The position numbers and the translations under genes were made by a program. Under the pieces are notes generated by a model. The model made no database searches. It was not told the origin of the DNA and was given only the letters and a program-made list of their open reading frames with translations. Of a stretch of DNA of 64,000 nucleotides, positions 56,134 to 64,000 are shown in pieces. Origin of the DNA: Candidatus Poribacteria bacterium. GTDB taxonomy: Bacteria > Poribacteria > WGA-4E > PCPOR2b. Location: contig OZ220744.1 of assembly GCA_965116925.1 (NCBI GenBank), positions 3,264,001 to 3,328,000 on the forward strand, in the 5' to 3' direction. Numbering within the stretch: the first letter of the stretch is position 1; every line of letters starts with the position of its first letter.

Positions 56134-59100
56134 CTATGCTGCCCAATCCACACACAACGCCTCGGCTTGTTCTAGTACCGTTGTGGTAGCACTCTCTTGT
56201 CTGTCAGGTGGGTAGCCGTGTCTGCGAAGAACGCGTTTCACCATCACCCGTAGCCTTGCGCGAACGCTTTCCCTTAGTGTCCAGTCGATCGTCACATTTC
56301 GCCGAACGGTTTCCACCAATTCGATCGCGATGGTTCGCAGCGTTTCGTCACCTAACACTTGCACCGCACTATCGTTGACCTCAAGCGCGTCGTAGAATGC
56401 TAGTTCATCATCTGAAAGCCCTAGTGCCTCGCCACGTTCTTGTGCCTCGCGCATCTCTTTTGCAATTTCAATCAGTTCCTCGATTACCTGTGCCGCTGCA
56501 ACCGTACGGTTCTGATAGGTACGAATCGAACGTTCCAACATCTCTGCAAACGAACGCCCTTGTACGACATTTTTCCGTGAGTGACTCCTAATCTCATCGT
56601 TGAGCAACCGTTCCAAAAGTTCAACCGCCACATTTTTGTATGGCAATTCGCGTACTTCAAGGAGAAATTCGTCGGAGAGAATTGAGACATCGGGTCGCTC
56701 CAACCCTGCGGCAGCAAAAATATCAATCACACCTTCAGAAACGACTGCTCTAGATACTAACTGTCGTATCGCCTGCTCTGTCGCCTCAGACTGCACTTCC
56801 TCTGTAGCGGTCGGTTTCGCCAAAACACTTCTCACCGTCTGAAAAAAATCGACATCGTCGCGAATCTCTGTCGTCTCTTCGTGCGGCACTGCCAGCGCAA
56901 ACGCTTTCGAGAGTGCAGTAACCGTCTCTAGTAGGCGGGTTTTGCCATCCTGCTGCCTCAGAATGTGTTCTTGCGCCGCAGGTAGTAATCTAAGGCGGTC
57001 TGTGGCGTTCCCATCAATCCACGTCGACCAATCGAAACCGTGAAACAGTCCGCAGCAGATCTCGTGCTTTTCTTGCATCACAGCGACCTCCTCCGCTTTA
57101 TCAACGGCGGTGCTCCCTTTTCCCCCGTTTTCGGTATAGTTCGCTAACGCCTGTTTCAGGTGGTAGGCAAGCCCAATGTAGTCCACAATTAAACCGCCCG
57201 GTTTGTCACCGAACACCCGATTGACACGGGCAATGGCTTGCATCAGTCCATGTCCGCGCATCGGCTTGTCCACATACATGGTATGAAGGCTAGGTGCGTC
57301 AAACCCTGTTAGCCACATATCACGGACAATCACCACTTTCAACGGATCTTTGGGGTTTTTGAATCGTACCGCGATCTCTTCTCGCCGAGCCTTGTTGCGG
57401 ATATGCTGCTGCCACGACGGATCATCATCGGACGAACCTGTCATCACAACCTTGATTTCTCCTTGCTTGTCATCGTCATCATGCCACTCTGGATGGCGTT
57501 CGACAATGGCGTTGTAGAGGTCAACGCAGATACGCCGGCTCATACAGACAATCATCGCCTTGCCATCTATTGCTTCCAACCGTTCTTCAAAGTGTGTAAC
57601 AATATCATCCGCAATGAGTCCCAACCGCTTTTCCGTTCCCACCAATGCCTCAAGTTGCGCCCATTTGGTCTTGAGTCTCTCTTTGCGTGCAACCTCCTCT
57701 CCTTCGGTTGCCTCCTCAAAGTCCGGGTCAACGTGAGGCTTTTCGTCCTGATCCAATTCAATTTTGGCGAGACGGCTTTCGTAGTAAATCGGAACGGTGG
57801 CACCGTCATCAACCGCACGTTGTATGTCGTAGATGCTGATGTAATCTCCGAAAACTCGACGAGTATCGCGATCTGCGGTTTCAATCGGCGTGCCAGTAAA
57901 ACCGATAAAAGAAGCATTTGGGAGTGCGTCTCGGATATGACGGGCAAATCCGCTGATAAAATCGTATTGGCTGCGATGCGCCTCGTCCGCGATAACCACA
58001 ATGTTTCGCCGATCGGATAGTAAGGGGAAACGGGTTTCATCACCCTCTGGAAAAAACTTTTGGACTGTGGTAAAGACTACCCTGCCTGAAGCGACTGTCA
58101 GAAGTTCGCGTAGATGTCCTCTATCGCTTGCTTGCACCGGGATTTGTCGCAAAAGTTGACTACACCGGGAAAATGTGCCGAACAGCTGCTCATCTAGGTC
58201 GTTTCGGTCCGTGATAACAACCAACGTCGGGTTTGCCATCTGCGGATGCTGGACGATGCTGCCGGCATAAAAAGCCATGGTCAAACTCTTGCCCGAACCC
58301 TGCGTGTGCCACACGACGCCGCACTGTTTGTCCCCTTCCGGGCGCGATGCTTCTACCGTCGTATCGACTGCCGTTTTCACAGCGTGGACCTGGTGATAAC
58401 CCGCAATCTTTTTGGCTATCGTCTCGCCCTCAGTCTCTTCAAAGACGACAAAGTGTTTGAGATAGCTCAAAAATCTGCCCTTCTCAAAGATTCCTTTAAG
58501 TAACACCTCTAGTTCTAATTCGGTTGAAGGTGCCTCGTCCTCTCCCTCTATCGTCCGCCACGGCAGAAACCATTCATTATCAGCGGTCAGGGACCCGACG
58601 TGAGCCTCTAACCCGTCAGAAATGATAACTGCCTCGTTATAGGTGAATAGCGAGGGGATTTCTTGCTTGTAGGTACAGATTTGGCGAAATGCCGTTAGGA
58701 TGGTGGCTTTTTCGTCGGTCGGGTTTTTGAGCTCGATCACGGCTAGGGGCAGCCCGTTGATAAACAGCACAACGTCCGGGCGGCGTTCGCTGCTCTCTAC
58801 CACTGTGAATTGGTTGACCACCAACCAGTCATTGTTTTCAGGTGAATCAAAATCAACCAACCGCACCCGCTCACCCCGCATCGTACCGTCCGGCTGTCGA
58901 GCCTCAACCTCTATCCCATCGACTAGCATCAAATGGAATGCACGGTTGTTCTGTATCAATGCGGGGGAATCGGGATAAAGCACTTTTCGGATTGTGTCCT
59001 CTTGTGCTTCGGCGGGTAGGTTTGGATTCAGGCGGGCAACTGCATCGCGTAAACGACGCTCTAAAATTACTTCGCTATAGGTAGAGCGTTCGGCATCGGG

Positions 59101-59208
59101 AGCCTCCGGGGCGATGTCGGGTCCGTGTAAAACGGTATAGTCTATTTCAGCGAGCCAATCGAGCGCGGCTTCTTCGATATCGGATTCGTAAATCGTGTTG
59201 AGATTCAT
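56134..59208 (-). CDS. hsdR: Type I restriction endonuclease subunit R
   Basis: [20 protein letters not shown] nuclease motif, [42 protein letters not shown]. Confidence 0.97.
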
Positions 59209-59287: not shown

Positions 59288-60340
59288 TTATTCTGCTTCC
59301 CCTTGCTGTTGAGTGTACCGATTCACAAAATCCGCACTATCAATATCCGGTTGACCTTGCCGTGCATAGAACGAAGAAAAGCGTGATACAATATCCTTTA
59401 CAAAAAAAGGCGATATCTGAATTGCAGGATCCTCAAATTGGTCTTCAAAATCGGCCTTGTGCAGCGTTTTCAGTTTTCTGAAGTTGAGAACCCCACCTTC
59501 AAAAAAATCAGTTTGGGGTAGCCAATGCGAGTATTGGCGTCTGTTATTAACAATTTCTCGGACTTTGCTTTTGCTCCTACTGCCCTCTAATGCCTCATTC
59601 ATACTCTCGATCTCAACAAGAAGAATATGATCTGTGTTGGATTTACCATTCCGTCTAATAACAAGATCACACGCTGGACTCAGAATCGCAAACTGCTGCT
59701 CCCCCGTTTTTTCTTTCACAATACTTCCAGTGGTGATAGTGTCTAACAACGGTGGGGATAGGTAGACCTCCTCTGGAAAACAGTTTTCTTCACCTTCCTC
59801 AAGAAGTTGAAACAAGTGATTCAGGGCGTATCGGAGGAGAGCCTTTTCGGTGCGTTCTAGATCTGTTTCTCCATAAGACACCCACGTTTCTATCTGTGGT
59901 AGAAGATTTTTGAGAAAGACTTCAGTTAGATTTTCTTCAATAATACCTCTTCCTCCCATAATACGAGTCAGTCCTGTGTTATATATTCCTTGAAACAGTG
60001 CAAGATCAGAGTCGTATGTTTCAACTGTACGATGACGCTTCTTAATGACGGAGGGATGATCAATAACCTCGCTGACGAAAGCTGTGACGAAAATAATCGG
60101 TATTCTGGTAAATGGATCGTGAAGTTGACGAACAATTTTATTTCCACCCTCTTTATCATTACCCAGTCTCAAGTCAATAATTGCACCATCATAAGAACCA
60201 TCTATTTTGCTTAAAGCACTCAAGAGATCTTCGGCTATCTCATATTCAACTTTTAACTGATTTCTATCATTGAATACTTCTACAGAATTCTTAAATGCCT
60301 CCCGTTGATTTGGTATGTCTTCAACAAGTAGAATTTTCAT
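59288..60340 (-). CDS. Response-regulator receiver fused to an uncharacterised (MazF/PemK-like?) output domain
   Basis: KILLVED, AIID56L, IIFVT86; C-terminal TGSIV...AILSPACDL...RFSSFYARQGQPD; no HTH. Confidence 0.8.
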   Translation of the reverse strand: MKILLVEDIPNQREAFKNSVEVFNDRNQLKVEYEIAEDLLSALSKIDGSYDGAIIDLRLGNDKEGGNKIVRQLHDPFTRIPIIFVTAFVSEVIDHPSVIKKRHRTVETYDSDLALFQGIYNTGLTRIMGGRGIIEENLTEVFLKNLLPQIETWVSYGETDLERTEKALLRYALNHLFQLLEEGEENCFPEEVYLSPPLLDTITTGSIVKEKTGEQQFAILSPACDLVIRRNGKSNTDHILLVEIESMNEALEGSRSKSKVREIVNNRRQYSHWLPQTDFFEGGVLNFRKLKTLHKADFEDQFEDPAIQISPFFVKDIVSRFSSFYARQGQPDIDSADFVNRYTQQQGEAE

Positions 60341-60352
60341 TGTATTCCCTTT

Positions 60353-62497
60353 TCACTCTGTTTTGGGTTGAAGCCTGAAATAGGCACCTTCATCAGATTC
60401 AAAGGCCTTCAGCTCAAGGTTGTTTCGCGCTGCGGCTTCACCCGCTATAGCCAGTCCCAAACCTGTTCCGTCGGGTTTGGTGGAAAACTGAGGTTCAAAG
60501 ATTATTTCACTGTCAATGAGGTCCGGTGCAATTCCCGGTCCGGTGTCACGATAGTCGATATGAATCAGGGAGTTACCGTCTGTCAGGAGCTCAATGCTGA
60601 TTTGCCGTACAGGAATCTTTTTCTCAACCATCCAATAAAGGCTATTATCAATAAGATTTGTGAAAATTGCGTAAATATCTTGGGACCAAGCGGAGAATTT
60701 GAAGTCGTCAGGGCCTTTAATTTCAGCGGATACGTTGTGGGATTTCATTTCATTTTCAAAGACAGAAAGCGTGTTCTTTATAGTTTGTTTCAGTTTCACC
60801 GGCTTTCTTGCACCGCGTTTTCCTGCTGCCAGCGGATCAAGCCTGCGGAAAAGTGTTACAAAAAACTCCATATTCTCCTCAATGCCATCGGCAATCGAAA
60901 GCAATTTTTCAAGTTTTCCCAAATCTCCGGTTTTCTGAAATGATTCGTTCCAGTACCTAAGGTTCGGTATTTGGTTGCGGAAGTAGCCGAGCGGTTGGCT
61001 GCCTTCATGGACGATGACATTGAGAAGCTTCCCCAAGGTAGCCTGGCTTTGATAAACCGCCACAGCTTGGTAGATTGCATCAGCGACTTTATTTTTATCT
61101 TCCTCATCCTGACTGATAATCTCAATGATTTCATCGGTAGTTATTTTGTCAACCGTACTCTTGTCAAGTCTCGTCTGTATGTCCCATTTCAACTGATCAA
61201 ACGAAAAAAGCCGTTCTAGTTCTCGTTCCACTTTGAGGGCAGATCGGCTCAGACCTACCTTTCTTCTGTAAGCAAAACGTCGCCATTCAAGTTCAGTGAT
61301 GACCCCCATTGTGATTTTCTTCAGTTGATCGAAAGCCTTGTTTTCCTTGAGTCCATCCCTTGCACTTTTTTCAATCAAGCCGGATGGATACTCAGACTCA
61401 ATCTGCACGTACCCAATTACTTGGTTGCTGCTGATGCATTGTGTGGGGTTCTGGATACGGCGCGCATTCAGTTTGAGCCAGTCAAAGTCAGCATCGCCTA
61501 GTGGCCTTATACGAAATCCGTTCCGATAAACACCGATGCCGTTGTATGCGTTCAGAAGCTGCCTGGCCTGGTTCTTTCCAACATAGCTGCCGGATCCATC
61601 CTTGAGACCACGGCCAATCAAGGATTCAATGGCTTCCTTCTCACGGTCATACACTCGGATATCGATATCAAGTTCACCGCAGCCAGTCCGCTCTCCAAAA
61701 TCGAATGCAATCTGTTCTTCCCCAATATTACGGGCTTTCTGCGATGAATATGTCAGGGTCCCTTTGCCGTTGTCGCTGATGTGCCCTGAAATTTTGTAGT
61801 CAAAAAGATCGAAAAGTAGGTAGGGTTCGACAAATTCCTTGATGTCCTCCACCGTCGGAAAACTGTTAACTGTTAAGTGTATACGGAATTCATCATTGCT
61901 GAAAACACGGCTCACCGGCGAGGTCAATTTCTTCAGTTCAAACCGAAGCTTATCAAACCGTTCTTGATCCCATTCGGCAAGAAGTTCCTTATCTCCATTC
62001 ATGGTTAGCCGCGTACCCGACGGTTCGGAGACTTTTGCTGTTTCAATGAAGATTTCCACATCATCCAGATACTGAGCGGTGTCGAATTTGCCCCATTCGA
62101 GATAGGTTGTTGTTTTCTCACCTTCAGAAGTGACAGTTTCAAGAAGTAGGTCTATGCCGAGAATGGAAGCAGCATAGCGTCCCACACCTTTGTGTCCCTG
62201 CAGAATCCTTCCGGAAGGACTTTGGTGCCTTTCAAGTTTGTCCTCGGTTGATGGGACCAGCCACTTATTGATAACATCCTCTCTTGACATGCCGTGACCG
62301 TGATCGGAGATAACGATAGTATATCCACCGCGGTCGTGAGATGCCTTGAATTCTATGTTCACATCAGGAGAATCGGCATCATAAGCGTTTTTAACCAACT
62401 CGAGGACAGCCGCATAATTGTCCTGAATAAGATCTCGACCGATGGTCAAAATGTGCCGCCCCGCAGGTCTAATTTTATAGGTGGTGTCGGTGTTCAT
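60353..62497 (-). CDS. GHKL (Hsp90/MORC-like) ATPase fused to a histidine kinase
   Basis: N-terminal ELVKNAYDAD, DHGHGM, GHKGVGR; C-terminal H-box IVHEG.QPL, NLIDNS, DTGPGI, FEP.FSTK, GTGLGL; no TM segment. Confidence 0.9.
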   Translation of the reverse strand: MNTDTTYKIRPAGRHILTIGRDLIQDNYAAVLELVKNAYDADSPDVNIEFKASHDRGGYTIVISDHGHGMSREDVINKWLVPSTEDKLERHQSPSGRILQGHKGVGRYAASILGIDLLLETVTSEGEKTTTYLEWGKFDTAQYLDDVEIFIETAKVSEPSGTRLTMNGDKELLAEWDQERFDKLRFELKKLTSPVSRVFSNDEFRIHLTVNSFPTVEDIKEFVEPYLLFDLFDYKISGHISDNGKGTLTYSSQKARNIGEEQIAFDFGERTGCGELDIDIRVYDREKEAIESLIGRGLKDGSGSYVGKNQARQLLNAYNGIGVYRNGFRIRPLGDADFDWLKLNARRIQNPTQCISSNQVIGYVQIESEYPSGLIEKSARDGLKENKAFDQLKKITMGVITELEWRRFAYRRKVGLSRSALKVERELERLFSFDQLKWDIQTRLDKSTVDKITTDEIIEIISQDEEDKNKVADAIYQAVAVYQSQATLGKLLNVIVHEGSQPLGYFRNQIPNLRYWNESFQKTGDLGKLEKLLSIADGIEENMEFFVTLFRRLDPLAAGKRGARKPVKLKQTIKNTLSVFENEMKSHNVSAEIKGPDDFKFSAWSQDIYAIFTNLIDNSLYWMVEKKIPVRQISIELLTDGNSLIHIDYRDTGPGIAPDLIDSEIIFEPQFSTKPDGTGLGLAIAGEAAARNNLELKAFESDEGAYFRLQPKTE

Positions 62498-62724: not shown

Positions 62725-63999
62725 TTACAACCCCTCAAAGAAATTGCGAAAAATATTAATGAGATCATGGCGAGCTCTCGAATTATGTTGGCGTTCATTA
62801 CCTCCCCAGAGCCGTTCTTCATACGCGCGAATCCAATCTCCCCATGAACTCTCCATTTGCTCACGTGTAACATTTAAGCAGGTCCATAACTGCGTGAGTT
62901 CTTTCTGACTGCGAAGCATGGTAATTGCACGTTGGGTTATACTGTAGTCCTCAGAAAGAAAAGTCAACGGGACATTATTAAATGTAGAAAAGATATCCTG
63001 CTGATCTGAAGCGATTCTTGATGCTAATTCATGAACACTCAGTGCCATATAATATGCAACCAGTGAAGTCCGGTATTCCGATTCATCTCCGAAGATGGGA
63101 TCCAACCACTCCCATTTTTCATAAGCCGTAGATAGATAATGCCAACTTTCTGTACAATTATTCCCAAGCGATTCAGACCACCCCATAAGTTCACGCCTTT
63201 TCCAGACGTGAAGGCGATCTGTTGTATATAAACCAGGAATTTTAACCCATGCGAGACTCAAGGCAAGATCTAACTGATTTGTGATTAGGCTGATTCCCCC
63301 GTGCAAACTATGGTAGATATATCCTAATGCAAAAGCAAGGTCCCCCCAGACTACAGGACCGGCAACTCTCCGGCCAACAGTGTCGGGCAGATCCTCAAGG
63401 GTAGACCTCTGATCCCTAAATTGTTCCATCTTGGATTCAACCCCGGCTAGAGCAACAGCAATTACGGGTGAAATAATCCCAACCGCCTCATCCACAGTCT
63501 CAAGCTTCTCTTTACCTGTTGGCGTTTCTCCAACCAGTCCCTCTTGTCGTCGTTGTACCAAAGAATTGAACGCCTTTGGCTTAATTCGTTTGACGAGTTG
63601 TCGCCAGCCGATCTCATCCCCTGTACGACTAATCTCAACTGCTGCGTAGTACGCGTTGGAGGCAGATTCAACTTGATCTGGAATTTCAGGCAGTTGAGTC
63701 TCTGTCTCTTCAGAAGGTGATGTCCCCTTTCTAGAAGATAATTGATCAAATAGACTTTCTCCCAAAGGAGGCTTCCTTTCAACTGGCACCTCGTAGAGTT
63801 TGTGAAGCAAATCATTGAATTTCTCATTAAATTGGCTATCATCTGTAAAGTCAATGTAAACTCGTCCACCTAAAAATGTTGGCATTTTCTCCTGCCTTGA
63901 CACCTGACGACTTATGGGAATAAATTTGTCAATCCCCAAATTTTCAACAAGCTGTGCAGTTACAATCTGCACCTCGTATCCAACCCCACCTTTGCGGTC
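62725..63999 (-). CDS. TIR/SEFIR domain protein, N-terminus outside the window
   Basis: Frame is open to the edge: DRKGGVGYEVQIVTAQL...KFIPI...PTFLGGRVYIDF...KPPLG, then an unknown helical domain. Confidence 0.8.
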   Translation of the reverse strand, partial: DRKGGVGYEVQIVTAQLVENLGIDKFIPISRQVSRQEKMPTFLGGRVYIDFTDDSQFNEKFNDLLHKLYEVPVERKPPLGESLFDQLSSRKGTSPSEETETQLPEIPDQVESASNAYYAAVEISRTGDEIGWRQLVKRIKPKAFNSLVQRRQEGLVGETPTGKEKLETVDEAVGIISPVIAVALAGVESKMEQFRDQRSTLEDLPDTVGRRVAGPVVWGDLAFALGYIYHSLHGGISLITNQLDLALSLAWVKIPGLYTTDRLHVWKRRELMGWSESLGNNCTESWHYLSTAYEKWEWLDPIFGDESEYRTSLVAYYMALSVHELASRIASDQQDIFSTFNNVPLTFLSEDYSITQRAITMLRSQKELTQLWTCLNVTREQMESSWGDWIRAYEERLWGGNERQHNSRARHDLINIFRNFFEGL

Positions 64000-64000
64000 A

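Follow-up and report, generated by a model that had tools for sequence, protein, structure and literature searches.

The minus strand of a 64,000-nucleotide stretch of a Candidatus Poribacteria genome (contig OZ220744.1, positions 3,264,001 to 3,328,000; hereafter the window) carries, at positions 59288 to 60340, a gene for a 350-residue response regulator composed of a receiver, a helical hairpin and an output domain with a predicted MazF fold. An effector role is likely for this protein, and the fold of its output domain is a prediction from structural models. We give slightly better than an even chance to the reading in which two genes make up an anti-phage phosphorelay and this protein is its effector, with the MazF-fold domain as the output.

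The output domain spans residues 200-331 (59348 to 59743, minus strand), as delimited by models, fold searches and conservation. A MazF/PemK-like fold had been proposed by eye for positions 59345 to 59740 in an earlier reading of the sequence (the original prediction), and these correspond to residues 201-332 of the minus-strand open reading frame (ORF), where all of the motifs then quoted are found. Structure prediction and two fold searches bear out a fold related to MazF/Kid/CcdB. AlphaFold2 modeled the whole protein with a mean pLDDT (predicted local distance difference test) of 94.9 and residues 185-345 with 95.1. All 27 matches listed among Foldseek ranks 1 to 50 were MazF-family toxins or the related CptN, with a best E of 5.5e-4, a probability of 1.0 and template modeling (TM) scores by target of 0.58-0.70 for the MazF matches. 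A Foldseek-independent search with VIA-align against 48,161 chains placed only MazF/Kid/CcdB/ToxN-type proteins in the top 15; these and lower ranks included the MazF chain 4mzm (Z 11.1, root mean square deviation (rmsd) 2.9 A, 104 residues aligned), MazF-mt3 (Z 11.0), CcdB 1vub (Z 10.3, rmsd 2.5 A, 95/95 residues), Kid (Z 9.4) and type III toxins (Z 5.1-7.8), and the best unrelated chain reached Z 4.6 (SH3-like chains at 4.6 or lower). Matches in a viral fold library were mostly PemK-like proteins. It is therefore well supported by the models that residues of about 200-330 adopt the MazF/Kid/CcdB fold, an SH3-like barrel with a C-terminal helix.

The MazF likeness is structural only and is invisible to profile comparison. 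HHalign gave the domain non-significant probabilities of 0.4% against the PemK profile and 0.55% against the CcdB profile (PF01845), and Pfam had no match for it or for any of 54 family members tested. Nothing in PADLOC or NCBIfam matched the output domain, the PDB sequence search gave receiver matches only among the 60 matches listed, and no match was found in the phage genomes searched with the domain. The ESM Atlas matches were unnamed clusters of 118-199 residues, and length-restricted homolog searches gave close relatives and fragments only among the matches listed. Compared with the MazF/PemK/Kid ribonucleases (RNases; MazF/PemK family PF02452) and CcdB, the predicted fold is the same over the whole domain (Z 9-11), but identity is 5-17%, the catalytic Arg and Thr are lacking and the first loop is short; an invariant Cys-Asp, an RQGQP tail, the fusion to a receiver and the lack of an antitoxin gene set it further apart.

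Conservation was read from an alignment of 135 full-length homologs out of 1371 collected proteins; for the C-terminal part alone, 607 cluster representatives were collected. The key residues of the domain are G205, P222, C224, D225, H272, N286-F287-R288 and the R327-Q-G-Q-P331 tail. G205, P222, C224 and P331 are invariant (135/135), and D225, R327 and G329 are each kept in 134 sequences, F287, Q328 and Q330 in 133, H272 in 125, N286 in 122 and R288 in 116. The domain is under purifying selection, with ratios of nonsynonymous to synonymous substitution rates (dN/dS) of 0.12-0.34 in 12 of 12 pairwise comparisons.

The receiver domain (residues 1-122; 59975 to 60340, minus strand) was recognized from a below-cut-off Pfam match (PF00072, E 1.4e-5), Foldseek and conservation. 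It carries E7/D8, T86 and the phospho-acceptor D56 (codon 60173-60175), which is kept in all 135 aligned homologs; R104 occupies the usual receiver Lys position, where the family has Lys in 83 and Arg in 52 sequences. Two long helices at residues 133-181 (59798 to 59944, minus strand), defined by DSSP on the model and by conservation, contain the near-invariant W153 and R170 and possibly form a linker or dimerization element. The conserved phospho-acceptor is accompanied by a cognate histidine kinase gene next to the receiver gene, in keeping with the phosphorylation gating originally suggested. This gene (60353 to 62497, minus strand; Pfam PF13589 and PF02518) encodes a soluble protein of 714 residues with an N-terminal MORC/MutL-type GHKL ATPase, a His box at H497 and a C-terminal HATPase_c domain. 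Its E33, N37 and H497 are invariant in 69 aligned homologs.

The same pair recurs in related loci. Of 206 related genome loci picked by a pattern containing RQGQP, the 80 best were used to count genes. Poribacteria lead this set, followed by many other lineages; the selection by pattern and the kinship of many loci make the counts descriptive. The kinase gene lies at most 150 nt upstream of the receiver gene in 76 of the 80; 56 loci have a C5 methylase and 36 have Vsr. The genes usually run in the order methylase, kinase, receiver, Vsr, and each locus has a single receiver gene. The one methylase scanned had DISARM DrmMII as its best PADLOC match (E 9e-162). No other constant nuclease cluster occurs in the cassette core across these loci, which leaves the MazF-fold domain as the sole unassigned candidate output.

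Cassettes of MORC-type kinase, receiver and methylase are widespread, and their 2021 description (PMC8011034) gives no output domain in its accessible text. The families of restriction-modification-linked two-component elements defined there, HEF_HK (PF19191) and Response_reg_2 (PF19192), share with the window pair a soluble GHKL ATPase-histidine kinase beside a receiver protein and the linkage to a C5 methylase and Vsr, the methylase being missing at the window locus. They differ in size: the window receiver has 350 residues against 550-640, and the kinase 714 against about 1000. Neither PF19191 nor PF19192 matched the window pair at E up to 1, and PF19192 found nothing in four genomes carrying the short branch. 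In 201 genomes, all five proteins above the PF19192 cut-off end in the same MazF-fold-related domain, where the accessible text of PMC8011034 reports no other known domain in Response_reg_2 proteins. HHalign aligned the window domain with these tails at 96%, and three long receivers were also recovered when whole genomes were searched with nothing but the short-branch profile. The merged alignment of all branches leaves five invariant residues, G205, C224, D225, R327 and G329. The merged profile matched in 16 of the 401 genomes sampled from one phylum and, for the phylum to which the window belongs, in 18 of 101. When flanks were read at 16 loci, 14 were of the receiver type and two standalone; a MORC kinase lies upstream in 12 of the 14, the other two being cut by contig ends, and a methylase is present in 10.

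The connection to known immunity comes from one of two standalone types. Genes of this type encode 258 residues and adjoin a GajB-like helicase gene. QMP33841.1, a 258-residue protein of an Escherichia coli plasmid, matches the domain profile (E 4.9e-7; HHalign 83% over 139 columns), and its neighbor is a UvrD helicase with the Walker A Lys at 252, the residue mutated in GajB of type II Gabija (PMC13069673). Judging from this layout and the K252 match, QMP33841.1 is very likely GajC of that system. GajC is described as a split MazF-like protein required for abortive-infection defense against 20 of 70 phages (PMC13069673, 2026), and its nuclease activity is a deduction in that paper. GajC (Liu-DS1) and the window protein have in common a MazF-like fold and a defense context and, presumably, membership in a sequence clade with the G, C-D, N-x-R and R-x-G motifs. 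GajC differs in standing alone, in being split by a helical insertion and in being paired with a UvrD helicase; the window domain is compact, is joined to a receiver and has a MORC histidine kinase as its partner. For type II Gabija itself, the window thus has a GajC-type MazF-like protein, through homology to the probable GajC, but no adjacent GajB UvrD helicase, the neighbors being the kinase and HsdR. The MazF fold and the sequence tie to a probable validated defense protein make the domain a candidate effector with five residues to mutate; conserved residues are indicated for GajC and are not named in the main text of PMC13069673. A GajC-like gene with a UvrD helicase gene was also seen at L174 (6514-9568) and L267 (3010-6052); the pair lies in an integrase island, beside a gene that looks smpB-like by eye, and it is also on 78 plasmid records, 70 of which are from Escherichia.

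The other standalone type, of about 180 residues, is very common in metagenomes. It aligns with the domain at 98% in HHalign (E 2.4e-13; reversed control 0.15%) and retains C-D, H, D-F-R and R-x-G-x-P. At L175 (4786-6466) and L187-L266 (598 pattern matches included 512 relatives, of which 80 were kept) the gene is the last of its operon and is preceded by a small ORF and often by a TIGR04255 gene, which was found upstream in 19 of 34 scanned. TIGR04255 proteins have what we take to be a SecB-like fold, and the operon layout resembles that of toxin-antitoxin-chaperone systems. Most of the small ORFs end, by eye, in a similar acidic/Pro/alternating-hydrophobic motif (27 of 66 by regular expression), and HHalign showed no alignment to TIGR04255 (2%) for twelve genes of about 220 residues that lie upstream of such homologs. 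In a literature search that left most subscription journals outside its reach, no paper naming TIGR04255 was found, and these three-gene operons are apparently an undescribed toxin-antitoxin-like family. A defense-effector role for the window domain draws support from both the probable GajC and these toxin-position genes. Tentatively, and with the balance of probability on the other side, all of these proteins may form a previously unnamed MazF-fold effector clade with new chemistry (Cys-Asp plus Arg-x-Gly in place of Arg/Thr) that is plugged into three immune switches, namely a helicase in type II Gabija, an antitoxin/chaperone-like pair in the TIGR04255 operons and a methylation-reading MORC histidine kinase that triggers the effector through His-to-Asp phosphotransfer. 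On that view, the last of these would be a restriction-modification system in which a toxin gated by phosphorylation takes the place of the restriction enzyme.

In the phosphorelay that we propose, DNA that is foreign or wrongly methylated would be sensed by the MORC-type ATPase/histidine kinase. The kinase would then phosphorylate the receiver at D56, and this would switch on the MazF-fold domain and arrest the infected cell by abortive infection. Sensing of unmethylated or foreign DNA is suggested by the methylase linkage, and phosphotransfer, activation, DNA trigger and abortive infection are all inferred steps. MazF-fold proteins act as dimers, so receiver-driven dimerization would be the most likely activation route. 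The 5mC methylase and Vsr of the ancestral cassette likely supplied its self mark; this genome no longer has the methylase, and here the pair likely backs up the surrounding type I restriction-modification (R-M) system. Published precedents cover parts of this scheme. MORC-type ATPases are R-M-linked DNA-handling proteins (PMC2292703, whose accessible text does not mention receivers), and His-Asp transfer can gate defense in Detocs (bioRxiv 10.1101/2023.01.24.525353) and Ambrosia (bioRxiv 10.1101/2025.09.30.679545). In Ambrosia, methylation gave phages no protection (bioRxiv 10.1101/2025.09.30.679545). If the scheme holds, a methylation-linked MORC ATPase signals through a phosphorelay to a toxin fold.

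The domain is not a MazF, and this and other observations weigh against its being a toxic output. MazF catalysis requires Arg and Thr (Arg28/Thr51; PMC8086154), and 14 of 14 true PemK controls from related genomes keep R, P and T. The RP arginine, which the original prediction had noted as missing, is lost family-wide (Arg in 8/135 at position 215 and 9/135 at 216), and Thr occurs in 0/135 at position 245. Since both catalytic positions are lost, the MazF-type RNase chemistry that was first suggested is not supported. Between the first Gly and the SP motif the span is 17 residues in 98/135 against 26 in 12 of 14 PemK controls, so that the first loop is nine residues shorter than that of MazF, and substitution of this loop abolished GajC defense (PMC13069673). 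The five universal residues map to the CcdB gyrase-binding face and not to the RNA face, and a structural role or contacts between domains could account for them. Neither Response_reg_2 tails nor GajC-like proteins keep H272. The GajC identity is based on the layout and the K252 match, and the link to GajC is remote and indirect. The 80-locus counts are not independent, because the loci were selected on RQGQP and are rich in Poribacteria, and the nearest relative with the same layout (L005) has a stop at residue 304, within the domain.

Several of these points would fit a regulator that is not itself toxic, in which the MazF fold is reused as a non-catalytic, CcdB-like protein-binding module and the phosphorylated protein recruits or licenses the MORC ATPase, Vsr, the methylase or a neighboring restriction enzyme. 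The MazF-like anti-sigma factor CalpT is an example of such reuse. Besides the loss of the catalytic Arg and Thr, the short loop and the non-universal H272, this account can draw on the fold search, where CcdB ties with MazF (Z 10.3 versus 11.1), on the persistence of receiver-less remnants in genomes, on the absence of host toxicity reported for Ambrosia (bioRxiv 10.1101/2025.09.30.679545) and on the mapping of the universal residues onto the partner-binding groove of CcdB, which consists of Q2, F3, S22, I24, N95 and W99-I101 (PMC5062330). These face assignments reflect the VIA-align alignment register only, and the conserved residues on the CcdB-equivalent face differ in kind from those of CcdB. 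We consider the account rather unlikely, as homologs stand alone in a toxin-like position behind a small partner ORF and replace the GajA nuclease in an abortive-infection system, and an invariant Cys-Asp with an Arg would seem more like chemistry than an interface. For the predicted effector, nucleic-acid cleavage by a relocated active site is moderately favored, and CcdB-like protein poisoning is the somewhat less probable option. GajC occupying the place of a nuclease and a cassette without any other nuclease would favor a nuclease. Catalytic positions were once proposed for MoxT and Kid (PMC3879964), and H272 and N286/R288 fall close to these in a register taken from a weak HHalign alignment.

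The original prediction was that the receiver may auto-inhibit the domain. On this reading, a MazF-like, constitutively active RNase would be held in check by its own receiver in place of an antitoxin and released by phosphorylation or cleavage. The premise that no antitoxin gene is adjacent was borne out: gaps of 12 nt to the upstream kinase gene and 79 nt to the downstream hsdR leave no antitoxin-sized ORF, and no conserved antitoxin gene lies beside the receiver across the 80 loci. Standalone homologs have a small partner gene and the fused forms do not, and Detocs DtcC has an effector that is toxic in isolation (bioRxiv 10.1101/2023.01.24.525353), both of which agree with auto-inhibition. 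The MazF catalytic residues are absent, however, and the receiver is lost or broken with the MazF-fold frame open in five of the 80 loci (L025, L053, L069, L072 and L074), a weak argument as such remnants may be unexpressed. Two database proteins, P0122 and P0160, have the intact domain fused in frame to a methylase start, also a weak argument as these are single ENA sequences and may be assembly errors. Auto-inhibition is thereby weakly contradicted, activation by phosphorylation is weakly favored over release, and we regard the auto-inhibited RNase as quite unlikely. L025 also shows a deletion (1350-1416) that joins a methylase start to the receiver gene out of frame.

That the window pair is a non-functional orphan of a methylase-dependent cassette is very unlikely. 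Upstream of the kinase gene, the search turned up neither a methylase nor a remnant of one, and among relatives L005 has its premature stop and the methylase-less L029 is broken. Both window genes are nevertheless intact with all conserved residues present, and dN/dS is well under 1 against methylase-less relatives as well. Under a strict filter for intact loci, which 57 passed and which dropped 23 of the 80 (about nine of them solely for the terminal stop), at least nine other intact pairs among the 57 are likewise methylase-less.

The cassette class, phosphorelay defense and a MazF-like defense protein are already in print, each separately, and no paper joining the MazF fold to these receivers was found in the literature search described above; the accessible text of PMC12839542 contained nothing that bears on the matter. 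Ambrosia is a validated defense system with a methylase, a HATPase kinase and a receiver, in which phospho-Asp is required (bioRxiv 10.1101/2025.09.30.679545). It differs, by description and not by sequence, in having five genes with an N6 methylase, an HNH nuclease and an XRE regulator, and its receiver bears a helix-turn-helix of the winged type (wHTH) and is read as a transcription regulator, MazF/PemK being unmentioned in the accessible text. No XRE, HNH or wHTH component was found in the window locus or model. Detocs likewise activates a fused toxic effector by kinase-to-receiver phosphotransfer (bioRxiv 10.1101/2023.01.24.525353), but with a TPR-type sensor, a PNP nucleosidase or other effectors and a separate buffer receiver, DtcB; its accessible text describes no MORC head or methylase link (bioRxiv 10.1101/2023.01.24.525353). 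The three-gene Detocs layout with a standalone DtcB is absent from these loci, which have a single receiver gene each. An assignment of the window receiver as DtcB was rejected, as DtcB is described without an output domain.

In the window, the genes of a type I R-M operon enclose the kinase-receiver module. HsdR, the restriction subunit, is encoded downstream (56134 to 59208, minus strand), and a 500-residue SEFIR/TIR protein whose start lies beyond the window is encoded upstream (62725 to 64000, minus strand), co-inserted and not a constant part of the module. With hsdM and hsdS just beyond the window, the gene order is hsdM, hsdS, SEFIR gene, kinase, receiver, hsdR. Just past the window end (L001, 10726-17591), a Schlafen/AlbA-HATPase_c_4 gene precedes hsdM, hsdS and the SEFIR/TIR gene upstream in the operon. 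The SEFIR-kinase-receiver insert also occurs in L005, L019, L021 and L031. Between the window and the last three of these, dN is 0.64-0.80 in the receiver and 0.12-0.27 in the hairpin, MazF-fold and kinase domains, which suggests receiver swapping. Elsewhere in this genome (G000, C1, 1694923-1697187), a second C5 methylase adjoins another MORC-type ATPase gene. A distant kinase-receiver-dcm cassette with 26% identity (L132, 3798-8228) is carried on Campylobacter plasmids; Campylobacter accounts for 41 of the 46 plasmid matches, one of which is named pTet.
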